A stretch of 64,000 bases of DNA from IMG/VR virus record IMGVR_UViG_3300018878_000143; one strand, written 5' to 3'. The position numbers were made by a program, and so were the translations under genes. The stretch is from an uncultured virus (IMG/VR IMGVR_UViG_3300018878_000143) (lineage: Duplodnaviria; Heunggongvirae; Uroviricota; Caudoviricetes). Under the pieces are notes generated by a model, which worked only from the letters and a program-made list of their open reading frames with translations, did not search any database and had not been told where the DNA came from. Positions 20,473 to 58,218 of the stretch are shown here, one piece after another; within the stretch, counting starts at the first letter, position 1; each line of letters starts with the position of its first letter.

Positions 20473-21369
20473 GTGAAACCGTTGTTTTATATTAAACTTG
20501 AAAAAGACGAGTCTTTGGTTATAACCGCAAAAGAACCAATTTATCGTGGAGAAAACCTAAACAAGAAAATAATTTACTTGATACCCAAAATGATCGACGA
20601 TATCGATGTCACAACATCTCGTGTATATTTAAATTATATACGCAGCGACGGCATTCCCAATGTTATCAAATTAGAAAATACAGGAGCTATGTATAATGAC
20701 AACTATTGCCAATACACCGTTCCTGTTGATCGTAAAATTACAAATGTTGCCGGTGACATCTGTACTTGGCTTCACTTCATTCCACATTCTTCTGAGCAAA
20801 TTGTAGTTAAGAGCGGAGAGTGTACTTTAACCATCCAAGACTCAAAGGACTTTGCGGACTATGATGACGCGGCCTTTCCAGACCTGCAGGATCGCGTGAC
20901 TTTTGCAGAAGACAACATCGAGGAACTAAAAAACGACTCGCATAACCACGCCAATATGGACGAGCTTGCAAAAATATTAAGCGGCGATGTTGATAAGTGG
21001 AATGGTATTTTGGTTAATATGCCAGAAGACGGTAAAGATGGCGTAAGTGTTGTTTCCGCAGTGATTAACGAAAATAATGAGTTAGTCCTCACTTACTCCA
21101 ACGGGGTTGAGAACAATCTTGGCGTAATTGTTGGAGCCAATGGCAAAGACGGGAAAGATGGTAACACCCCCGTTATTAACATTGACGAGTCATCTGAACA
21201 ATGGATGGTGTCGTATGACAATGGAAAGACGTGGAAGTCTCTTGGTGTAGATGCAGTTGGCAACGATTATGTTTTAACAGAAACAGACAAGCGCGACATT
21301 GCCGAACAAGCTGCCGGCTTATTGGATGAAAAATTAATTGCCTCTATCGGAACGGGGGTTTTACAATGA
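20473..21369 (+). CDS. Fibre adapter protein (BppU-like N-terminus, short collagen-like segments)
   Basis: GGAGG before GTG; GxDGxDG repeats; C-terminal DYVLTETDKRDIA motif. Confidence 0.65.
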   Translation: MKPLFYIKLEKDESLVITAKEPIYRGENLNKKIIYLIPKMIDDIDVTTSRVYLNYIRSDGIPNVIKLENTGAMYNDNYCQYTVPVDRKITNVAGDICTWLHFIPHSSEQIVVKSGECTLTIQDSKDFADYDDAAFPDLQDRVTFAEDNIEELKNDSHNHANMDELAKILSGDVDKWNGILVNMPEDGKDGVSVVSAVINENNELVLTYSNGVENNLGVIVGANGKDGKDGNTPVINIDESSEQWMVSYDNGKTWKSLGVDAVGNDYVLTETDKRDIAEQAAGLLDEKLIASIGTGVLQ

Positions 21370-24300
21370 GTATTAAATTTGAAAGCGTGCAGAGAATTGA
21401 AGCCGTAAAGAACCGCATCGAAAATGCTACCGGGCTTAAGCATGAAAATCTAACAGAAGCAATACAAGCCCTAAAAGATATGAAGCCAATTTCTATATCG
21501 TCCGCAGAAGACCTATTGCACTTTTCTAACGAGGTAAATGCCGGAAGATCAAACCTTTGTGCTGTCCTGACAGATGATATTGATATGAGTGCTACCAAAT
21601 GGATTGAAGATATGTCAAGCCATGCTATTGGCACCTCAGATACTCCATACTGCGGTACATTCGACGGTCAAGGACACACAATATCTGGAATCGAAATGTC
21701 CTTTAACAATGTTTTCGACAAAGTAGAGGATAAATACCGAGATTTCCGTGTTGGTTTGTTCGGAACTGTTAATGGTGCAACTATAAGAAATATAACCGTA
21801 TCAGGCTCAGCCACTATTACTGGTCGCCATTGTGAAAATAGTAAGATTGGAGGCATTTGTGCTGTTGCAAAAAACTCTACATTTGTTAGATGCTGTAACA
21901 AGGTTAGCATTAACAGTCCACTGAACACAAATCCAGGGGCATACCAGCATCTTTTCTACACCAATATCGGTGGCATTATTGGCTATGCTAAGTCTGTTGT
22001 TGTACATGAATGCTCTAATGAGGCAGATATGTATATCAGCGGAATGTATGTTGGCGGTTTAATCGGTTATATGGAAGATTCTGATGTGCCATCCAAAGTT
22101 ACATGCAGTTGTAACAAAGGAAGGATTGATGGCTATGACATTACCGGTTGTTTAATCGGTCGACTTGGCGGCTGTACACACAGATACAAAGACACTGGAG
22201 ATATTGTGGAAATAGATTTTTCTGCCTCAGTTTCTGGAATGTCTAACCAAGATTGGTGGAATGATCTTGCACCAACATCTGATGAAAATGTAAAGTATGT
22301 TGGATGTAAAGATGGGAATACGGCCATGACTACCGAGCAAATAGCTGCTTATGATAGTTTAAACGAATATTTGAAGCTCAATCACAACTGGTGGATAGAC
22401 GAAACTGTTTCTGGTTTTAAGAGAAAGGAATTTCGTAAAAGGCTGTTCTTTAACAACAATCCAGAGTATCAATGGCGAGTTGGGTATTACCCATATATGA
22501 CTTATACGAACAACTCCGTTAATGCAAATCGTGCAGATTTGTGTTTAAAAGTTGTTGTTCCAGAAGATGGTCGTTATCAGCTTGTCATAGATTTGTACGC
22601 CGAAAGTTCAACCGGTAACTCCAACATTATTACTGGCGGAAACGCCGGTGGCGGATGCGCTGATATCTATGTTGATGGCGAGCTTTTATATAAAGATTAT
22701 ATATTCAGGGGGACATCATCCCAAAGGAAAGAAGACTATATACGTGGAATTAATTTAAAGAAAGGTATTTCCACTATAAGCATAGAACATTCTGACCCCA
22801 GTTATGGCTCAAGACCAACGATTATGTTAAACAGCATAAAATTAATTCAAGCCAACGATATAGAGGTTATCAGCGGAAAGACTATTGAATTTGAAGCCAA
22901 AGGCATCTTAGAAAATGCAGGCTCTTCTATTGATGACATTGATATAATATCAAATAATGATTTTATAGATGTATCGATGCGCACCGATAACGACACTTAC
23001 TGTAATATAACATATAGATCTGGTAGAGCTGAGAATGCCTGGATAAGACTGTATGATCGAAATAAATCCGAATACCTTGTAGACTTGTTTGCTACTGCTG
23101 TAGGCGATATTGATACATCAACTCGCACGACAATAGTAAACAATTGCTATAATACTGGAAACTATGGAAGTCATTCGCTAGACGGAACAAGCCGCTGGCA
23201 TTCTGCTGGTCTTTTTGGTGAAACGCAAATAGAAAGTTTCTATGTACACAATTGTTTCACTGCTGGTGCAGCTGATTATATTGAGCGCAACATAGATACA
23301 AACGAGGATGGAATAATTGACGAAAATGACTTTTATGCAGGTAGCGCGATATATGTAACATGTAGAAGCACCTCTGTCGGAAGCTATAATAATGTCGCAT
23401 ATTTGAGGGGTGTTAGCAGAAAGCCGTTTAACATTCAGGCCGATGACCACTATGAAGACGTTGCAATTGATGTGGAACATGAACATATGTGCGGATTGGA
23501 CTTTGCAGAAATATTCGGGTTTGTGTATACTGGTAATTTACCGATGCTTGATTGGGAAATATCTGTTTATGACGATCTTATTTCTCGATCAAGTTTCAAT
23601 ATGAGTAGTAACAGTTTGGGCGAAATTGCTCCATATGCATTTTATAGGAATACCAGTCTATTGTATGTAGATTTTCCTCGCGTGCGCACAATAGGTGGAG
23701 CGGCATTTTTTGGATGTAAAAATCTATACAGCATAAACTCCCCCCTTGTTGAGTTTATCGATGTTGGCGAAGGTGATTATGGGTATGAGGGTGCATTTGA
23801 ATGGTCAAACATTGAGTCTACCCCCTTCCCTCTTTTAAACGTGGTGGCTGATCGTTGTTTTGCGCGATGCTCATCGTTAAAAGTCGCCGATCTTCCAAGC
23901 GCAACACATATTGGAGAGTGTGCATTCATGGATTGCAAGTCTTTGTCCAGTATACATGCTGAAAATGTAAGTAAAGTTGGATATAGCGCATTCAATGGGT
24001 GCGTTGATCTAAAAGAGGTCTATTTACCAGGAGTTGTCGAATTGGAGGGAAGCGCGTTTTACGGGTGTACCAATCTACAAAGTGTTAAACTTTCACCTGC
24101 TATAGAAGAGTTGCCCGGAGCGGTTTTCTCAAAATGCTCTTCTTTAACAAATTTTGACTTTTCAAATATCAAGAAATTTCTTGGTAGTAGCACATTTTCT
24201 CAATCTGGACTTACAAGCGTCGTATGCACAAAACTACAGACCGTAACAACAAGCTCATTCTGGAAGTGTGAATTTTTAACAAAGGCAGATTTTCATGTCG

Positions 24301-24542
24301 CAACAAAAATAGAGGGTAACTCGTTTAATTATACACCGTTAGATGCGTTAATTCTCAGGAGCGACACTGTATGCGCATTAGCGTCTACAACAGCTTTTGC
24401 AAGCAGCTCTCTGACAACTACCGGATATATATATGTTCCAAAAGCCTTACTGTCCGAATACAAGTCTGCAACTAACTGGAGCACTTTATCAAAAAGGTTT
24501 AGAGCTATCGAAGATTATCAGGATATTTGCGGAGGTGTATAA
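21366..24542 (+). CDS. Mosaic adhesin/receptor-binding protein: GLUG-like repeats, CBM-like insert, BspA-type leucine-rich repeats
   Basis: GTFDGQGHTISG, IGGIIG and VGGLIG motifs; repeated IG..AF..C..L..V.LP units; C-terminal YIYVPKALLSEYKSATNW. Confidence 0.8.
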   Translation: MSIKFESVQRIEAVKNRIENATGLKHENLTEAIQALKDMKPISISSAEDLLHFSNEVNAGRSNLCAVLTDDIDMSATKWIEDMSSHAIGTSDTPYCGTFDGQGHTISGIEMSFNNVFDKVEDKYRDFRVGLFGTVNGATIRNITVSGSATITGRHCENSKIGGICAVAKNSTFVRCCNKVSINSPLNTNPGAYQHLFYTNIGGIIGYAKSVVVHECSNEADMYISGMYVGGLIGYMEDSDVPSKVTCSCNKGRIDGYDITGCLIGRLGGCTHRYKDTGDIVEIDFSASVSGMSNQDWWNDLAPTSDENVKYVGCKDGNTAMTTEQIAAYDSLNEYLKLNHNWWIDETVSGFKRKEFRKRLFFNNNPEYQWRVGYYPYMTYTNNSVNANRADLCLKVVVPEDGRYQLVIDLYAESSTGNSNIITGGNAGGGCADIYVDGELLYKDYIFRGTSSQRKEDYIRGINLKKGISTISIEHSDPSYGSRPTIMLNSIKLIQANDIEVISGKTIEFEAKGILENAGSSIDDIDIISNNDFIDVSMRTDNDTYCNITYRSGRAENAWIRLYDRNKSEYLVDLFATAVGDIDTSTRTTIVNNCYNTGNYGSHSLDGTSRWHSAGLFGETQIESFYVHNCFTAGAADYIERNIDTNEDGIIDENDFYAGSAIYVTCRSTSVGSYNNVAYLRGVSRKPFNIQADDHYEDVAIDVEHEHMCGLDFAEIFGFVYTGNLPMLDWEISVYDDLISRSSFNMSSNSLGEIAPYAFYRNTSLLYVDFPRVRTIGGAAFFGCKNLYSINSPLVEFIDVGEGDYGYEGAFEWSNIESTPFPLLNVVADRCFARCSSLKVADLPSATHIGECAFMDCKSLSSIHAENVSKVGYSAFNGCVDLKEVYLPGVVELEGSAFYGCTNLQSVKLSPAIEELPGAVFSKCSSLTNFDFSNIKKFLGSSTFSQSGLTSVVCTKLQTVTTSSFWKCEFLTKADFHVATKIEGNSFNYTPLDALILRSDTVCALASTTAFASSSLTTTGYIYVPKALLSEYKSATNWSTLSKRFRAIEDYQDICGGV

Positions 24543-34552: not shown

Positions 34553-35671
34553 CTATTTTATAGCTCTGTCCAACATCGCAACTGCGTCTGAGTAGTCATT
34601 TTGCAGTGCATGAACATACGTCTGTAATGTAATGTTGATGTCTCCATGCCCTAATAGTTTGGAGACTGTCTTGGGCGACACTCCATTTCGTATTAGCGTA
34701 GTCGCAAACGAATGTCTGAGAGAGTGCACACCATAAATCCTATCTTCTGGTATGCCCGCAGCTTTTAACACTCTGCGGAATGTCGTGTCTAACACCTTAG
34801 GGTATGTCGGATTGCCGTGTCTCGATGCAAGCACATAGTTACTACTCTTTATCTTTTGTAGTTCTATGAGTGCTTCTACGGCCATCTCATTGAGAGGAAC
34901 TGTGCGCATACCATTCTGTGTCTTTGTAACCTTTTGGTCAACAAGCTTGTTTCTGGTTGTTGCACCCTCATCTCGGTTCTTTACCAATACCCTATTTCCT
35001 TTGATTATAATTTGTTTTTTCTTAAAGTCAACATTGTCCCATGTCAACCCACAAAGCTCACCAAGGCGTAGTCCTGTATTGCCGAGCAGAACAATTGCCC
35101 ACCCCTGTCTGAACACAGGCACCCCATTGGAATACTTTCTGGTTGACGCATCATAAATTTTGCGTAGCTCGTCTTCTTCATAGAATATGATTTCGCCTTT
35201 TGGTTTCTTGTTAACAGATGGCACTTTTACAAAGGTGGTTGGATCACTGGTTATTGTTTCTCGTTCCAGATAATATCTGAAACACCCGCTTAAAAGCTCA
35301 AATGCTTTCTTGACCGTCGAATAGGAGTATCCCTTATTACATAGATCAATCAGCATATCATCTATGTCGCCTTTTTTGATTGTACTGAACTGCTGTTTTG
35401 CAAAATACAGCTTTACTTGGTTTTCCCAAACCTGCTCAAGCCTGTCAAAACTACTCGGTTTCAGCCTAACTTGTTGTACACTTAGCCACTTCGTTATAGC
35501 ATCTTCAGCAGTCAATTTTGCCACCGGGACAGCTTGTATTATGCTTACCGCTTTCATTTCTTTAAGCTTCCGTTTTGCTTCAGCTTCTGTTTTGCAGGTC
35601 GTTTGCCTGTTCTTGTATTTTACTGTCCACCGACCATCTGCTCTTTTTGAAATACTTCCAGACTTTGCCAT
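34553..35671 (-). CDS. int: Tyrosine integrase
   Basis: Catalytic set GLRLGE (R), KT (K), HSLRH, LGH, TYVH (Y); GGAGG RBS. Confidence 0.95.
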   Translation of the reverse strand: MAKSGSISKRADGRWTVKYKNRQTTCKTEAEAKRKLKEMKAVSIIQAVPVAKLTAEDAITKWLSVQQVRLKPSSFDRLEQVWENQVKLYFAKQQFSTIKKGDIDDMLIDLCNKGYSYSTVKKAFELLSGCFRYYLERETITSDPTTFVKVPSVNKKPKGEIIFYEEDELRKIYDASTRKYSNGVPVFRQGWAIVLLGNTGLRLGELCGLTWDNVDFKKKQIIIKGNRVLVKNRDEGATTRNKLVDQKVTKTQNGMRTVPLNEMAVEALIELQKIKSSNYVLASRHGNPTYPKVLDTTFRRVLKAAGIPEDRIYGVHSLRHSFATTLIRNGVSPKTVSKLLGHGDINITLQTYVHALQNDYSDAVAMLDRAIK

Positions 35672-35685
35672 AAACATACGCCTCC

Positions 35686-35877
35686 TCAAATGATGAAATA
35701 TGATCCTTCATATGTCGAAAACCAGCGCTGCAGGGCACTTTTTTCGACTATGTATCTTCCTCCAACTTTGATTGAGGGAAATGACGGAGAACGCATAAGT
35801 TCATAGGCTTGTCTTTTTCCACACTTAAATAATTCCTGAATTTCCTTAACTGTATATACTTCTAAACCATTTAACAT
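35686..35877 (-). CDS. xis: Excisionase-like winged HTH protein
   Basis: YTVKEIQELF.CG...AYELM....FPSIKVG.RYIV; directly upstream of int. Confidence 0.8.
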   Translation of the reverse strand: MLNGLEVYTVKEIQELFKCGKRQAYELMRSPSFPSIKVGGRYIVEKSALQRWFSTYEGSYFII

Positions 35878-40216: not shown

Positions 40217-40852
40217 TTAAATAATATCTTCGATGTCACAGTCTTCGCCGATGATATAATCGACAAATCCTTTCTCCTTTGCTTCATCACTAAACAGATA
40301 CCACTCGATACGCAACTTACTATCGTATTCTTCAGAGGTCACCTTACTCATAGACAGAACATATTTCTTAATACGTTCTTCAACTCGGCGGTTGAACTCC
40401 ATCTGGTCTTGAGCTTTAGCACCAGAGTTATAAATGAAGTTTGATCCATCGTGCATCAGAAATTTGGAGTGTGCGAACGCGTATCTCTTATGTCCTGCCA
40501 AACCAATCAGAAAGCCCATAGAATACTGATATCCCATATTGATTGTGTAGACCGGAGTTTTGCTGCTTATAATAACATCGATTAACTCAAACCCTGCGTC
40601 AACTTCACCACCGTTGGATGCGATGTAAAGCATAATTGGCTGTCTATCCTTGATTTTCTTCCCAACATCTTCTCTGTTATATTGGAGAATGTGTTTGGCG
40701 ATTTCTCCAATACTATACTGAGAGACATCTTCGCTTAAGAATAACTTGCGTTGCTTGAGGTCTTTATAGTAAAGGAGCTCGCCAACAAGCGCTCCGTCCA
40801 TAAGAGCCTTTTCAATTTCAACATCAACATCGTAATATCCACGTTTCTTCAT
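40217..40852 (-). CDS. clpP: ClpP-like protease
   Basis: LYIASNGGEV, YSMG (catalytic Ser), FLMHD (His), EAKEKGFVD. Confidence 0.85.
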   Translation of the reverse strand: MKKRGYYDVDVEIEKALMDGALVGELLYYKDLKQRKLFLSEDVSQYSIGEIAKHILQYNREDVGKKIKDRQPIMLYIASNGGEVDAGFELIDVIISSKTPVYTINMGYQYSMGFLIGLAGHKRYAFAHSKFLMHDGSNFIYNSGAKAQDQMEFNRRVEERIKKYVLSMSKVTSEEYDSKLRIEWYLFSDEAKEKGFVDYIIGEDCDIEDII

Positions 40853-52296: not shown

Positions 52297-52503
52297 TCAT
52301 ATTAATTTTATATATTTTTCCTCAAGAGCTGCCGGGTTCTTGTCTTTTCCAAGCTTGACAAACTTCCCATCTTGCAGTGTATAGAGATAATAAAAATCCC
52401 TCGTTGGCTTTGATGTTGTGATGTAGCGAAGATTGTGTTCTTTATCGTAATAACTAACCCACACACTCTCTCCTTTTGGATATGTTAGTGCCACACTTTT
52501 CAC
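52297..52503 (-). CDS. Hypothetical protein
   Basis: 68 aa, AAGGAG RBS. Confidence 0.6.
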   Translation of the reverse strand: MKSVALTYPKGESVWVSYYDKEHNLRYITTSKPTRDFYYLYTLQDGKFVKLGKDKNPAALEEKYIKLI

Positions 52504-52523: not shown

Positions 52524-52555
52524 AAAAAAGAAGAAGGGCTTCCCCCTCCTTCTTT
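52524..52555 (-). terminator. Terminator after the MrpR-like gene
   Basis: Minus strand AAGAAGGAGGG-GGAAG-CCCTTCTTCTT followed by TTTT. Confidence 0.7.
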
Positions 52556-53486
52556 ATCTTGCAAATGCTGCTTTCCAACAACCGTAGTCATCAAACAAGT
52601 CGCGTCGAATTCCATTTGCTTCCTTATTTCTTGTGTAGTTCTTGTGGTATTTGTGATCCATCTGAGAAAGTCTTTCTTCAACAATACCATCAAAATTAAC
52701 TTCTTCGCCACATCGTTCCATCTCATATGCCTTGTAGAACAATCCAGACAGTCGGATTTTGTTATAGGTAGTTTCCACACCACATTCTTTAAATGCCTTG
52801 CCAATGCTTGCTCTTACAGTTGCAATTTTAATTTGCTCCGAACGAATACCTCGCATGAGGAGTTCTCCCGGATATCTATTTCGATATCCACCCTGCTTGT
52901 CTGATCCATAATTTGGGTTGATATAGCGGAATTGCGTAGCACTACATGCCATTTTAAATGTGGGAACCGCTTCACGATACAGTTCATAAGACCTTCCGTT
53001 GTGTTCAATTAACATCGTATCAAAGTCAATTTCGCAAACTTTGACATCCAGTGCATCTACATCCTTCAACCCCGCAAAAGCCATCCATAAATAACAACGA
53101 TAAAGACAGTCCACTGTTTCAGACTGGACTGGTGCAAACGCCTTGTTTAGTGTGGCTTCAAGATGCTTAGGCGACGCAATCATTAGACGGCGAACTTTTT
53201 CGTCCATTTCTGTTTTTAACAGATATACACCATCCCCAACTGGAAATCCTTCTTCCCTACACCAAGTTGTGTATGCGCGAAGAAATGCGATGGTTGAATC
53301 TGATGTTCTCGTTCGTGAACCAAAGTTGGAGTTTGCTACTGGCTGTAAAATCTCAATCGGTAGCTCACACAGATCCATCTTTGCCTCGTGTTCATAAGGG
53401 GCTATAGTCTTAAATACAGACTTACCAAATCCGACGGATGATCTCGTCTCTTCAAGGAACCTCATCTTGCGCTCTTCGTTGTACAT
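52554..53486 (-). CDS. MrpR (SPbeta YopR)-like repressor, degenerate tyrosine-recombinase fold
   Basis: MYNEERKMRFL...E....DLCE...FLRAYTTW N-terminal domain; LWMAFAGL; TYNKIRLSGLFYKAY; no HxxR/LGH catalytic set. Family recognised from memory and needs HMM confirmation. Confidence 0.7.
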   Translation of the reverse strand: MYNEERKMRFLEETRSSVGFGKSVFKTIAPYEHEAKMDLCELPIEILQPVANSNFGSRTRTSDSTIAFLRAYTTWCREEGFPVGDGVYLLKTEMDEKVRRLMIASPKHLEATLNKAFAPVQSETVDCLYRCYLWMAFAGLKDVDALDVKVCEIDFDTMLIEHNGRSYELYREAVPTFKMACSATQFRYINPNYGSDKQGGYRNRYPGELLMRGIRSEQIKIATVRASIGKAFKECGVETTYNKIRLSGLFYKAYEMERCGEEVNFDGIVEERLSQMDHKYHKNYTRNKEANGIRRDLFDDYGCWKAAFAR

Positions 53487-53495
53487 GACTACCTC

Positions 53496-53930
53496 CTATG
53501 CCGCACAGTTAAACTTCATAGACTTTCTCCATGCGTCCAACAAGTCCGCTTCGTTTAGAAAAGAAATCGCTGACGTTGCAATCAGATTAGCCATTGCGAT
53601 CTTTCTCATGTAATCATCGGAGAGCTTAGTAATGAACTTGCCGATTTTAGACTTAGACATCTTTTCAGGATTTTCACATAACACCATGCTATCCATGCGT
53701 AGACCAGTATCTGCAGCGTAGACAACCACGTGAGTTGGCTGCATTGCTTTTTTGATTGAACTTGTTAATGGCAATGCTATCACATTCGGGCTATGCGCGT
53801 TGCCGGTGTTGTTTTGGAACACCACGCCAGGTCTCCACCCGTTCTGCTCATTCCCGCTACCTTCAAACTTCATCAGGTAAACTTCTCCGATCATCGGAGC
53901 CATACGCACTTCGTGACGAGTCTCGCTCAT
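53496..53930 (-). CDS. mazF: MazF/PemK-family endoribonuclease
   Basis: GEVY...GNEQNGWRPGVVFQNNTGN.HSP.VI.LPLTS...PTHV...DS.VLCE; catalytic Arg and Thr positions kept. Confidence 0.9.
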   Translation of the reverse strand: MSETRHEVRMAPMIGEVYLMKFEGSGNEQNGWRPGVVFQNNTGNAHSPNVIALPLTSSIKKAMQPTHVVVYAADTGLRMDSMVLCENPEKMSKSKIGKFITKLSDDYMRKIAMANLIATSAISFLNEADLLDAWRKSMKFNCAA

Positions 53931-53959
53931 GTTCAGTCCCTCCTTATCTTGATGGGCTG

Positions 53960-53988
53960 ATTATATCACATAATGCGTATAATGTCAA
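53960..53988 (-). promoter_or_regulatory. Consensus sigmaA promoter for mazF-mrpR
   Basis: TTGACA-N17-TATAAT with extended TG. Confidence 0.85.
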
Positions 53989-54017
53989 CAATAATTTATG
54001 AAGTATTCCGAAATCTT

Positions 54018-54326
54018 TTAACTACACCTCAATGTGTACCTAACCTGAGTAGGTCTATCGCTCAATGTGTAGTCATTGCATAGAAATATGTATGATTGTT
54101 CATCGTCAGATCTTCTATGTCTTTTTATGGAACAAATATGGTTAAGACACATTCTTGCAGAACTACTTTTTAAGGCGATGTAAGGTGAGGCTGAAATATT
54201 CACAGCAATATGATCAAATTGGAGTGAAAACTTCAGTGGGCTAAGAGGATCATCAAACGTAACAATAATATCCTTATATGCTTCTGCTTCAATTCTAAAT
54301 TGCCCAAGAGAGAGATTCGACTTCAT
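54018..54326 (-). CDS. 102-aa hypothetical protein, probably SOS-induced
   Basis: GGAGGT RBS before ATG 54326. Confidence 0.7.
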   Translation of the reverse strand: MKSNLSLGQFRIEAEAYKDIIVTFDDPLSPLKFSLQFDHIAVNISASPYIALKSSSARMCLNHICSIKRHRRSDDEQSYIFLCNDYTLSDRPTQVRYTLRCS

Positions 54327-54348
54327 GTAGCATACCTCCAGATTTCTG

Positions 54349-54377
54349 TTGATTTTTGTTTGTTTGCGTGGTACACT
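54349..54377 (+). promoter_or_regulatory. sigmaA promoter for the antisense sRNA
   Basis: TTGATT-N17-TACACT with extended TG. Confidence 0.7.
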
Positions 54378-54383
54378 ACAGTC

Positions 54384-54501
54384 GTGAAGACATATTGCAG
54401 TATGTCGTTCACTTGCAGTGTTTTGCTGCAATGCCGCCTTGGGGTTTGGTGTATTCCTTTCGGGCGGGGAGGGCAAGCTTCGGCTTGTCCTCTTTTCTTT
54501 T
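54384..54501 (+). ncRNA. Candidate antisense small RNA of about 118 nt
   Basis: Promoter upstream; three hairpins (54384-54412, 54413-54431, 54434-54467); UUCG terminator 54469-54492 followed by TTTTCTTTT. Confidence 0.65.
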
Positions 54502-54530
54502 GCAAAGCATTACAGTTGCCACTTCATTTT

Positions 54531-54568
54531 CGAACACTTATTCGAACATTCGTTTGAATATGTGTTCA
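54531..54568. promoter_or_regulatory. Three tandem Firmicute LexA (Cheo/SOS)-like boxes
   Basis: CGAAC-ACTT-ATTCG, CGAAC-ATTC-GTTTG and TGAAT-ATGT-GTTCA at 12-bp spacing. Confidence 0.65.
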
Positions 54569-54576
54569 TGTTCCAT

Positions 54577-54605
54577 ATGCTAACACAAACAATTGGATGT
54601 GTCAA
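54577..54605 (-). promoter_or_regulatory. sigmaA promoter with start site abutting the SOS boxes
   Basis: TTGACA-N17-TAGCAT with extended TG. Confidence 0.7.
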
Positions 54606-54677
54606 GGTTTGGGAAACATAAAACTATTTGACAATTTCTTGAAAATTTATCAATAACAATAAAATATTGCTTAAGCC

Positions 54678-54715
54678 AAATAAAGAACAGAGCGACTGCG
54701 ATGGTCGCTCTGCCC
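54678..54715 (-). terminator. Intrinsic terminator
   Basis: Minus strand GGGCAGAGCGAC...GTCGCTCTGTTC followed by TTTATTT. Confidence 0.75.
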
Positions 54716-55365
54716 TATTTTAGACTCCACCGGAAACCGTATATATTATCCGTTAAAGCCTCTGGGTCTGCAATTTTCTGATAGTCATCCCAATAAAAAT
54801 CCATTCCTCGACTAACATATTTTTCAGTTAATGAATTAACCTCGTCGGGACCTACCACCACAATGAGACGAATAGGCACATCATGATTAACAAGCTCTTG
54901 TTCCACCCACCCCATGAGTTTCTTAAAGCATTTTCTCAATCGTCTGCCCTTGTCGGATACCTGAGACGGAAGATGCATGGTCGTTGGAAAAGCGCCTGAA
55001 ACAGAGCACTCCCATCGAGGTATCTTTCCCCTTTTTGCCATAAGCATTCTTAACGCCATGTCGTATTCAACCAAGTATTTGTTTTTAGGGTAGTATGAGA
55101 ACGCCTCAAGCTCATTATGTAATAAAACTTGAGAAAAAACATCGCTCAGTTCTTCCATCACTTCTTCATACTTACTTGGATCGTCAAGTTTCTCCTTTAG
55201 TAAAAGTTCAAGATTCCGATCTTCTGCAAACATTTTAATTCTTTCGTCTTGCCGTAAATTGGATGCAATAAGAGCATCTGTTTTGTACGACTCTTGTTTT
55301 TCGTTACCAACTTTAATTGTAATTATTAAAATAAGAACAATAGCTATGATCAAGGCCATACACAA
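54715..55365 (-). CDS. N-terminally membrane-anchored protein
   Basis: MALIIAIVLILIITIKV hydrophobic anchor. Confidence 0.7.
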   Translation of the reverse strand: MCMALIIAIVLILIITIKVGNEKQESYKTDALIASNLRQDERIKMFAEDRNLELLLKEKLDDPSKYEEVMEELSDVFSQVLLHNELEAFSYYPKNKYLVEYDMALRMLMAKRGKIPRWECSVSGAFPTTMHLPSQVSDKGRRLRKCFKKLMGWVEQELVNHDVPIRLIVVVGPDEVNSLTEKYVSRGMDFYWDDYQKIADPEALTDNIYGFRWSLK

Positions 55366-55372
55366 ACACCAC

Positions 55373-55603
55373 CTATGCTACCGCTTCATTAATGCTATCT
55401 TTTGCTTCATCAATTTTATCTATAGCATCTTCTAAATTGTCTATTGCGCTCTCCATGCGTTCGTAGCGCTCGCTGCTCTGGAGATTTTCTGGAAGGTTGT
55501 CTAAACAATCCTGTTCCTCGTCTTTTGCATCGCGAATAATACAAATTGCACTGTCAAGATATGATAATGCACGCCTAAGTGACTTTCTTCTATTCTTGTT
55601 CAT
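55373..55603 (-). CDS. Small coiled-coil protein
   Basis: MNKNRRK...DEEQDCLDNLPENLQ.SER, a pattern I recognise from phage hypotheticals. Confidence 0.7.
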   Translation of the reverse strand: MNKNRRKSLRRALSYLDSAICIIRDAKDEEQDCLDNLPENLQSSERYERMESAIDNLEDAIDKIDEAKDSINEAVA

Positions 55604-57084: not shown

Positions 57085-58218
57085 TTATCTCCTTCGTAAG
57101 TTTTTTACAGATTCAACGACGACACGGGCAGCATCGCGAACTTCTTCTAATGTTGTATATTTTGAAAATGAAATACGAATAGAACTCCTTGCTTGGTCGC
57201 TTGATAGTCCAATCGCGGTCAACACATGGCTTGGAACAGCCAAGTGTGCGGTGCAGGCCGAGCCTGCCGATACAACAACACCCTTACTACCCAAAAGTAA
57301 AAGTAATGTCTCTCCATCAACACCATCAAAACGCATATTTACAATTTTAGAATCTTTACATGGATCGCCGTTAATATAGACGCCCTGTAGCTCACTCAAA
57401 ATGTTGAAAAATTCTTCTTTTATTGTCTTGTAGTGCTCAGGTGTTTTATGGCATTCTCTATATACTCCCTCTGCAGCCGCTCCCATTCCAATAATTGCCG
57501 GCACATTTTCCGTTCCTGCACGAATCCCAAATTCCTGTTTTCCGCCAAAAATAATTGGATTCAACAAGTCTTTATTTCTTGCATATAGAAAACCAATCCC
57601 CTTTTGTGCGTGAAACTTGTGACCAGACGCAGACAAAAAATCGATGCAGAACTTGTCTACATCGATCTCGGTATCACAATATGCTTGCACACAATCAGTG
57701 TGAAATAAAACATCATTCGCTCTGCAAATCTGCCCAATGGATTTCGTATCCATCTTGTTGCCTATTTCATTGTTAATTCCCATAATAGAAACAAGGCCAG
57801 TGCCACCATGTATGGCGTTATCAACATCGTCTGGCGACACATACCCGTTTGAATCTACTGAAATATGTGTTACATCAAAACCATTATCAAATAGGTATTT
57901 TATAGGCTCTAAGACAGATTGGTGCTCGACCGTAGATGTGATGATATGCGTCTTACCTACCCGTCGCAAATAATCAGCCAAACCAACAATAGCCAGCGTA
58001 TTGGCCTCGGACCCACCGGAAGTGAAAATAATACACTCCGGATCAGCATTGATTGGTTTTGCAACTTGCTTCCTCGCTTTTTCTATGGCGTTGGCAGCTA
58101 AGCGTCCCATAGAATGAATGCTGCCAGGATTTCCATAGTTCAACGACATATATGGCAGCATAGCATCTATCACCTCTTGTGAGACTTTTGTTGTCGCAGC
58201 ATTATCAAGATAAATCAT
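57085..58218 (-). CDS. iscS: Cysteine desulfurase (IscS/NifS type)
   Basis: IYLDNAATT, GNPGSIH, FTSGGSEAN, EH, NNEIG, HTDCVQ, SGHKF (PLP Lys), RAGTEN, SAGSAC (catalytic Cys). Confidence 0.95.
   Translation of the reverse strand: MIYLDNAATTKVSQEVIDAMLPYMSLNYGNPGSIHSMGRLAANAIEKARKQVAKPINADPECIIFTSGGSEANTLAIVGLADYLRRVGKTHIITSTVEHQSVLEPIKYLFDNGFDVTHISVDSNGYVSPDDVDNAIHGGTGLVSIMGINNEIGNKMDTKSIGQICRANDVLFHTDCVQAYCDTEIDVDKFCIDFLSASGHKFHAQKGIGFLYARNKDLLNPIIFGGKQEFGIRAGTENVPAIIGMGAAAEGVYRECHKTPEHYKTIKEEFFNILSELQGVYINGDPCKDSKIVNMRFDGVDGETLLLLLGSKGVVVSAGSACTAHLAVPSHVLTAIGLSSDQARSSIRISFSKYTTLEEVRDAARVVVESVKNLRRR

Follow-up and report, generated by a model that had tools for sequence, protein, structure and literature searches.

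A conserved mazF-mrpR-like gene pair with a small upstream partner: a possible lysis-lysogeny control module in large temperate phages of gut Clostridia

We analyzed a 64,000-nucleotide window (bases 22778 to 86777, minus strand) of the 104,404-bp IMG/VR virus record IMGVR_UViG_3300018878_000143, whose completeness is estimated at 88%. The record is a large temperate tailed phage. The plus-strand half of the window carries structural and lysis genes (a 2144-aa tape measure protein, Dit, tail proteins, and a CHAP endolysin), and the minus-strand half carries an integrase, Xis, and a replication and nucleotide metabolism block (a DnaE-type polymerase, primase, DnaB, a PD-(D/E)XK exonuclease, an SSB-like protein, Erf, an HD protein, ribonucleotide reductase, and dUTPase). 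At the head of the replication-recombination block lies a minus-strand unit of two genes, which encode a 144-aa endoribonuclease of the MazF/PemK family (window positions 53496 to 53930) and a 310-aa protein with a tyrosine-recombinase fold that resembles MrpR and SroF (52554 to 53486). A 102-aa open reading frame (ORF) on the same strand, here called ORF-A (54018 to 54326), precedes them.

The mazF-mrpR unit is laid out as an operon. Its promoter (53960 to 53988, minus strand) has the sequence TTGACA-N17-TATAAT, matches the consensus at 12 of 12 positions with a TG before the -10 element (an extended -10), and is the only perfect TTGACA-17-TATAAT site in the window; one further site has 1 mismatch, and the chance expectation for sites with at most 1 mismatch is 0.86. 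The mazF gene starts ~30 nt 3′ of the promoter behind an AAGGAGG, and 9 nt separate its stop codon, which is spanned by a GGAGG, from the start of the mrpR-like gene. An intrinsic terminator with a 12-bp stem and a T run (52527 to 52555, minus strand) ends the operon. In 50 of 83 distinct relatives, a crude script with no shuffle control found a hairpin and T run no more than 110 nt from the stop codon of the mrpR-like gene. Of 54 distinct relative spacers between ORF-A and mazF, 53 have at the same place a TTGAC[AT]-16/18-TATA[AC]T-like site that matches at 10 or more of the 12 hexamer positions (likewise counted with no shuffle control), and 52 of these 53 have the extended TG. Hence, mazF and the mrpR-like gene have a strong, conserved promoter of their own. 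A preliminary description of this DNA, made from its sequence alone, had reported the perfect promoter reading into mazF and the terminator closing the unit (given there as 52524 to 52555), and both stand.

Several lines of evidence place the 310-aa protein in the MrpR/SroF family. Residues 1 to 76 match the N-terminal core-binding domain MrpR_N_CB (PF22822; E, 2.7e-10; 41.2 bits, with a cutoff of 27), a domain present in all but three of its 105 homolog clusters, those three being short (205 to 224 aa). A 35-member profile of the family matches YopR/MrpR of phage SPbeta (positions 1 to 291 against YopR 2 to 303; E, 4e-4). We also searched with an AlphaFold (AF2) model (pLDDT, 90.6), and the seven best Foldseek matches were chains of MrpR, YopR, and SroF (E, 1.7e-9 to 8.9e-7), including MrpR 8a0a (1.7e-9), YopR, the phi3T SroF-DNA complex 9rd5 (TM, 0.59), and the SroF-Sar complex 9rgl; XerA, Cre, and other true recombinases ranked behind them. 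Sequence identity to MrpR and SroF is 14 to 17%, and the TM values to the three proteins are low (0.43 to 0.59) because the two domains are posed differently. Profile and predicted structure thus agree with the earlier proposal of an MrpR-like, recombinase-fold protein. Among GenBank phages (INPHARED), no protein match to it and no DNA match to the region was found.

The tyrosine-recombinase fold, and a match to phrog_5830, which is labeled "integrase," would also fit a protein that is still an active recombinase, or an integrase accessory protein, and not a repressor. However, the Pfam Phage_integrase model (PF00589) does not match it even at an E value of ≤1, its best matches are the noncatalytic MrpR and SroF, and the record already holds three PF00589 recombinases. 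In addition, the box I Arg aligns to Lys141, a column that varies in the family (in a weak hhalign alignment with the window's own integrase; probability, 0.5). We consider an active recombinase very improbable, and loss of catalysis is likely judging from these comparisons. The family has an invariant tyrosine, Y301, near the C terminus. The three ordinary recombinases lie at window positions 34553 to 35689 (minus strand) and at L132:7264-8304 and L132:15474-16295. Since the 310-aa protein is the only recognizable regulator in the record, we infer that it represses the lytic cycle.

The 144-aa protein matches PF02452 (PemK_toxin, an SH3-like barrel; E, 2.1e-21; 76.6 bits, with a cutoff of 23.1) and phrog_1936, "MazF-like growth inhibitor" (E, 2.1e-23). 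Its nearest solved relatives are Staphylococcus aureus MazF (4mzm; E, 6e-18) and Bacillus subtilis EndoA (4mdx; E, 8e-16). As the preliminary description had stated, the catalytic Arg and Thr are intact: R33 and T56 align with the corresponding residues of S. aureus MazF, and all 31 family members compared share them. We take the equivalent Arg and Thr (R25 and T48 of B. subtilis MazF) to be the catalytic residues, and the phage protein is apparently an active RNase. The mean column identity of the clade is 57%, and the other residues invariant among the 31 sequences are P34, K60, K61, P65, T66, H67, S81, C85, E86, N87, P88 (the last four forming a CENP motif), and K93. A scan of the module proteins with NCBIfam gave only a subthreshold MazF match, and PADLOC matched none of five proteins. 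Among GenBank phages (INPHARED), 42 records match this MazF at an E value of ≤1e-8, all with <60% identity, and 1 of the 42 covers at least 80% of the query.

This MazF is longer than its solved relatives. Since the alignments to Protein Data Bank (PDB) chains stop near residue 118 to 126, the ~20 to 25 additional C-terminal residues are a real extension, which had been put at about 20 aa before. The extension is conserved: a clade-specific amphipathic helix at approximately residues 115 to 141 (consensus LLATSAISFLD..L..W.KA..LN) is common to the family. The tail alone had no match among PDB chains at an E value of ≤10. One possibility is that the additional helix makes MazF self-inhibiting; another is that the tail imitates the helix of MazE.

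We searched all six frames of the whole 104,404-bp record for an antitoxin of the usual kind and found no match to MazE/AbrB (PF04014) or to ribbon-helix-helix (RHH; PF01402) at an E value of ≤1. The earlier statement that the unit has no MazE, AbrB, or RHH ORF therefore holds for the entire record. To call the toxin "antitoxin-less" is correct in the sense that no MazE-like gene is present, but the MrpR-like protein or ORF-A could still neutralize MazF. Like type II MazEF and PemIK systems, the unit has a PemK fold with the Arg and Thr kept and is a tightly coupled two-gene operon. It differs from them in that the toxin gene precedes its partner, which codes for a recombinase-fold protein of 310 aa instead of a MazE/AbrB or RHH protein, and in that MazF has the additional conserved C-terminal helix. 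PHROGs and Pfam scans of ORFs of ≥55 aa, which included no dedicated AimR model or short-peptide scan, gave no arbitrium-like annotation in this 88% complete record.

To determine how widely the gene arrangement is conserved, we collected 48 loci encoding relatives of the MrpR-like protein (5 from IMG/VR and 43 from GTDB genomes) and tested 35 of them with Pfam, excluding duplicates, matches at contig ends, and weak partial matches. In 30 of the 35, a PemK_toxin ORF immediately precedes the mrpR-like gene, and this arrangement holds down to ~30% identity of the MrpR-like protein. The exceptions are L015 (a glyoxalase gene), L030, L034, L043, and L045. The titles of the GTDB genomes are mostly those of Oscillospiraceae, Ruminococcus, and other metagenome-assembled genomes (MAGs) of Clostridia; the few Bacteroidota or Treponema labels may be binning errors. 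We also surveyed from the side of the toxin, using a profile of this MazF type and the best 80 of 123 IMG/VR loci, a redundant set with 55 distinct MazF sequences in 32 loose clusters. An MrpR-like ORF follows mazF in 79 of these 80 loci and is adjacent in 77; the gap is 318 nt at L107 and ~1.1 kb at L127. The remaining locus, L113, has mazF without an mrpR-like gene, and no remnant of one was found past it. Divergent homologs of ORF-A lie upstream of mazF in 76 of the 80. The survey of mazF-mrpR synteny that had been suggested earlier was thus positive from both sides. In a gene content tally of 128 loci, a redundant set in which some loci are cut by contig ends, ORF-A and the mrpR-like gene occur without mazF at two loci (L030 and L045), mazF and the mrpR-like gene without ORF-A at eight (e.g., L036 and L042), the mrpR-like gene alone at nine, and mazF alone at one. 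We conclude that the mazF-mrpR pairing is conserved, which is the main new result of this analysis; a literature search found no description of a phage-encoded MazF paired with an MrpR/SroF-type repressor. At two loci there is a tandem pair of MrpR_N_CB genes (L038:3451-5335 and L043:4001-5891). The second of these has no detected MazF or ORF-A; upstream of its tandem pair is a class-V aminotransferase gene, resembling the one at window positions 57085 to 58218.

A conserved position next to the repressor gene bears on whether MazF is simply moron-type cargo on a transcript that is always on in the lysogen, serving defense or host manipulation and having no part in the phage's decision. Solo MazF-like genes are common in phages (phrog_1936 and the 42 GenBank phage records), one example being that of Coprococcus phage NatCom_10489, where no antitoxin is annotated next to the gene. 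Moreover, MazF is far better conserved than both of its neighbors, which would fit a conserved external target. However, morons are usually patchy, whereas the slot between promoter and repressor gene is kept in nearly all relatives, and this type of MazF almost never occurs apart from the mrpR-like gene. We regard the cargo explanation as unlikely.

The closest known parallels are in Bacillus phages of the SPbeta group, for which we rely here and below on three reports (PMC10516654, PMC10769878, and 10.1101/2025.11.27.690993). SPbeta MrpR (YopR) is described there as the master repressor, a recombinase-fold protein that no longer functions as a recombinase and that binds the repeated element SPBRE; another product of the SPbeta repressor operon binds host MazE (PMC10516654). 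In phi3T, AimX and YosL inhibit host MazF to allow lysis, phi3T_93 binds MazE, and free host MazF promotes lysogeny by a route given there as not known (PMC10769878). The phi3T repressor SroF binds a 24- to 26-bp operator as a monomeric clamp, and Sar, a LexA-controlled antirepressor of ~100 aa, is a DNA mimic that inactivates SroF and coevolves with it; host MazF spares transcripts of the sro operon and promotes lysogeny (10.1101/2025.11.27.690993). The phage described here has a repressor candidate of the same recombinase-fold family. As in phi3T, a neighboring gene of ~100 codons has SOS-type control and co-diverges with the repressor, here judged from sequence alone. The tie of MazF to the decision (PMC10769878) and the presence of a MazEF-related gene in the repressor operon (PMC10516654) are further likenesses, and the link to SPbeta drawn in the preliminary description is apt, given that host MazF favors lysogeny of phi3T and that a MazE-binding protein is encoded in the SPbeta repressor operon. 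In contrast to SPbeta and phi3T, which act through host MazF, MazF is encoded here by the phage, directly ahead of the repressor gene; general scans with no dedicated AimR model found no arbitrium genes and no six-gene sro operon; and the hosts, according to genome titles, are Clostridia rather than Bacillus.

We next considered ORF-A. It has no match in Pfam, PHROGs, NCBIfam, or PADLOC. An AF2 model (pLDDT, 93.3) has one short helix and eight strands, and its best fold match by VIA-align is B. subtilis YojF (1njh; Z, 8.2; rmsd, 3.3 over 95 residues), followed by PH/EVH1-like domains (Z, 5 to 6.5). Foldseek gave no match for the model at an E value of ≤1e-3, and the sequence matched no PDB chain, MazE and Sar included, at an E value below 2. 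The predicted PH-like beta fold rules out a MazE/AbrB or RHH fold. Membership in the Sar family can likewise be discarded, and ORF-A is an analog of Sar at most: Sar is an alpha/beta acidic DNA mimic with four strands and three helices that forms an intertwined dimer, whereas ORF-A is all-beta, PH-like, and nonacidic, with a pI of 8.4 (family median, 6.7). At one locus, the sequence that best matches ORF-A is not ahead of mazF but past the mrpR-like gene, in the opposite orientation (L023:4941-5261, minus strand).

ORF-A has a separate promoter (54577 to 54605, minus strand; TTGACA-17-TAGCAT; 10 of 12 matches, with TG before the -10), which comes after a bidirectional terminator (54684 to 54716). 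Just downstream of its -10 element are three abutting LexA (Cheo)-box-like sites (54532 to 54567), each GAAC-N4-GTTC with 1 mismatch. The motif is not enriched across the window (32 found, 22.9 ± 5.1 expected), and this is its only cluster. Taken alone, the cluster is weak evidence, and comparison across relatives strengthens it. In most relatives, a CI/LexA-type gene is divergent from ORF-A, with both HTH_3 and Peptidase_S24 domains in 11 of 11 proteins run through Pfam. Counting upstream regions as distinct sequences, not as independent lineages, we found the CI-like gene in 61 of 87; LexA-like boxes occur in 16 of the 26 without a CI-like gene and are perfect in 10 of those 16, compared with 3 of the 61 that have one. 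Since boxes and CI-like gene are complementary across relatives, ORF-A seems in every case to be controlled by a repressor sensitive to SOS, which is supplied by the host or by the phage. Most relatives differ in the latter respect from phi3T, where host LexA is in control. The record analyzed here has no HTH_3 or Peptidase_S24 match, and no remnant of a CI-like gene was found at 53900 to 55500 of the window. The earlier designation "master repressor" is plausible for the MrpR-like protein of this phage, which has no CI-like gene, but many relatives also have such a gene. The ORF-A leader (54327 to 54576, minus strand) is unusually long, at ~250 nt, and contains a strong hairpin (54466 to 54495) that scores as a terminator on the plus strand only.

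We compared pairwise protein distances over 82 distinct triads, calculating partial correlations given the third protein. ORF-A and MrpR-like distances are tightly correlated (r, 0.935), and the correlation is largely retained given MazF (partial r, 0.87). For MazF and the MrpR-like protein, r is 0.73 and the partial r is 0.28; for MazF and ORF-A, the values are 0.70 and 0.09. The mean pairwise distance is 0.70 for ORF-A and 0.35 for MazF. Loci L109 and L111 differ by 3% in MazF, 36% in the MrpR-like protein, and 65% in ORF-A, a pattern that implies either that both flanks were exchanged or that the middle gene is strongly conserved or was converted. With the reservations about these correlations given below, the pattern suggests that ORF-A and the MrpR-like protein are matched to each other in specificity and that MazF is a conserved component of a generic kind, which requires the mrpR-like gene to be present. 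The preliminary description had treated the mazF-mrpR unit as a self-contained operon. That view has to be given up, because ORF-A belongs to a conserved triad (76 of 80 loci), has an SOS-type promoter, and co-diverges with the repressor.

The position of ORF-A upstream of the toxin gene in those 76 loci is that usual for an antitoxin, and its fast evolution is also typical of antitoxins. Hence, ORF-A might be a noncanonical antitoxin of MazF in the classical gene order, with the MrpR-like protein as the third, regulatory part of a tripartite toxin-antitoxin (TA)-type module; as a precedent, AimX and YosL of phi3T inhibit MazF and thereby allow lysis (PMC10769878). However, a strong conserved promoter between ORF-A and mazF, together with the SOS-type promoter of ORF-A, would leave no fixed ratio of the two products. 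In addition, the model of ORF-A has neither of the usual antitoxin folds, its distances follow those of the MrpR-like protein and not those of MazF, and each gene occurs without the other (ORF-A without mazF at two loci and mazF without ORF-A at eight). An antitoxin role for ORF-A is quite unlikely.

Of the two candidates for neutralizing MazF, the MrpR-like protein is the better one, since some loci lack ORF-A and a resting lysogen probably does not express it. The repressor and MazF would then form a TA-like pair, encoded toxin first and DNA-binding partner second, in which the repressor neutralizes MazF and its loss or inactivation frees the RNase, with prophage addiction, abortive infection or superinfection exclusion, or host shutoff at induction as the outcome. 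The tight coupling of the genes fits such a pair, with the ribosome-binding site over the mazF stop codon and, at L053, a 4-nt overlap. So does the asymmetry of their dependence, with mazF lacking the mrpR-like gene in 1 of 80 loci and the mrpR-like gene lacking mazF in at least 11 of 128 (redundant) loci. The eight loci with mazF and the mrpR-like gene but no ORF-A mean that ORF-A cannot be the general restraint, its SOS-repressed promoter would leave it absent from a resting lysogen in any case, and the conserved amphipathic helix of MazF could dock a partner. On the other hand, after controlling for ORF-A, MazF co-diverges only weakly with the MrpR-like protein, the SroF/MrpR proteins of Bacillus phages function with no MazF gene next to theirs, and PADLOC has no match. 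We hold a TA-like pair, the main rival reading, to be possible, if doubtful.

We propose instead that the three genes are a conserved lysis-lysogeny control module with its own MazF, found in large temperate tailed phages of gut Clostridia; we put the probability of this reading at about 45%. The MrpR/SroF-like protein would be the phage repressor, a recombinase fold turned into a DNA-binding clamp that acts on lytic promoters. MazF and the repressor would be co-transcribed from the strong conserved promoter, both at establishment and in the lysogen, and because the promoter is shared, MazF would be made whenever the repressor is made. The ORF-A promoter would be kept off by an SOS-sensitive repressor: host LexA at the three boxes in this phage and, in most relatives, the self-cleaving CI/LexA-like protein of the phage. 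DNA damage would free the promoter of LexA or the CI-like protein, and the ORF-A protein then made would inactivate the MrpR-like repressor, as a functional analog of phi3T Sar with a different fold. MazF would give the phage its own version of an RNase arm for which SPbeta-like phages draw on the host, biasing the decision toward lysogeny or its maintenance. We infer this RNase arm, already suggested in the preliminary description, by analogy, and the task of MazF is the least certain step.

The proposed logic is also that of the LexA-controlled antirepressor switches of coliphage 186 (Tum) and the Salmonella Gifsy phages, in which the main repressor is not cleaved through RecA and is inactivated by a small SOS-induced protein. 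Unlike in those switches, an RNase gene lies inside the repressor operon here, and neither the repressor family nor the candidate antirepressor is related to theirs.

Several observations weigh against the proposed module. A lysogen should be harmed by MazF that a consensus promoter drives without restraint, and the model consequently needs a restraint. ORF-A, being nonacidic and all-beta, cannot act as a DNA mimic of the Sar type. In most relatives, the CI-like repressor could itself be the main repressor. A repeated operator for the MrpR-like protein was not found in the window: by a crude method, the repeats look like chance, and an intergenic search for 18-mers (≤4 mismatches) gave only AT-rich or terminator look-alikes; the operator may be short or degenerate. 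If this MazF cuts UACAU, the site of its nearest solved relatives, the mazF-mrpR operons do not clearly avoid the site. In 62 nonredundant operons compared with their downstream flanks, its observed/expected ratio is 0.79, ranking 116th of 1013 pentamers and thus outside the most depleted ones, and only 9 of the 62 operons are UACAU free. Finally, shared descent inflates all three distance correlations, and MazF has the narrowest range of distances.

The lysis-lysogeny module and the TA-like pair might also be combined. The immunity repressor would then double as the antitoxin of MazF, held through the C-terminal helix, and ORF-A, by pulling the repressor away, would at once derepress the lytic genes and release the RNase. 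The RNase would also be set free if the prophage or the repressor were lost, and one node of three proteins would link lysogenic immunity, addiction or exclusion, and induction. We offer this combination as a speculation and consider it rather doubtful.

As proposed, the control module reproduces the logic of SroF with a phage-encoded MazF and a structurally unrelated small protein, and it is of interest for both lysis-lysogeny decisions and TA biology. The same repressor family, with MazF immediately ahead of it, recurs in about a hundred sequences of a distant phage clade of gut Clostridia, which suggests that the partnership of MazF and repressor is an ancient, general design and not an oddity of Bacillus. 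The three genes would provide a compact system, needing no arbitrium layer or host TA locus, in which to study an RNase in the choice of lysogeny. ORF-A would represent a new, structurally unrelated family of candidate antirepressors, and the apparent swap of host LexA boxes with a phage LexA-like repressor is a natural experiment on the wiring of the SOS input.

Directly past the operon terminator is a conserved 68-aa ORF (52297 to 52503, minus strand), the first gene of the HD/Erf/SSB replication-recombination block. It has 64-aa homologs at L002 and L003 and a subthreshold Pfam match to the arm-binding domain of lambda integrase (E, 0.074). Because no promoter-like site lies between the terminator and this ORF, it and the HD, Erf, and SSB genes behind it may rely on terminator read-through; its membership in the module is uncertain. 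Among the nucleotide metabolism genes, far from the head genes, is a gene for a ClpP-family protease (40217 to 40852, minus strand; Pfam CLP_protease, 6e-24), which PHROGs labels both as a head maturation protease and as an ATP-dependent protease. This ClpP could be relevant to turnover of a repressor or antitoxin.

Elsewhere in the same record, outside the window, genes for a NADAR domain protein, an isochorismatase/PncA-like protein, a PRPP-synthetase-like protein, a NAMPT/NAPRTase-like protein, and NAD synthase lie in a row (L130:11406-19413). Together they resemble a set for NAD salvage or reconstitution of the kind that phages employ against NAD-depleting defenses. Among the tail genes of the window, a 1058-aa protein (21366 to 24542, plus strand) has BspA-type leucine-rich repeats (Pfam LRR_5, 2.6e-32) and is likely a receptor-binding or adhesion protein.

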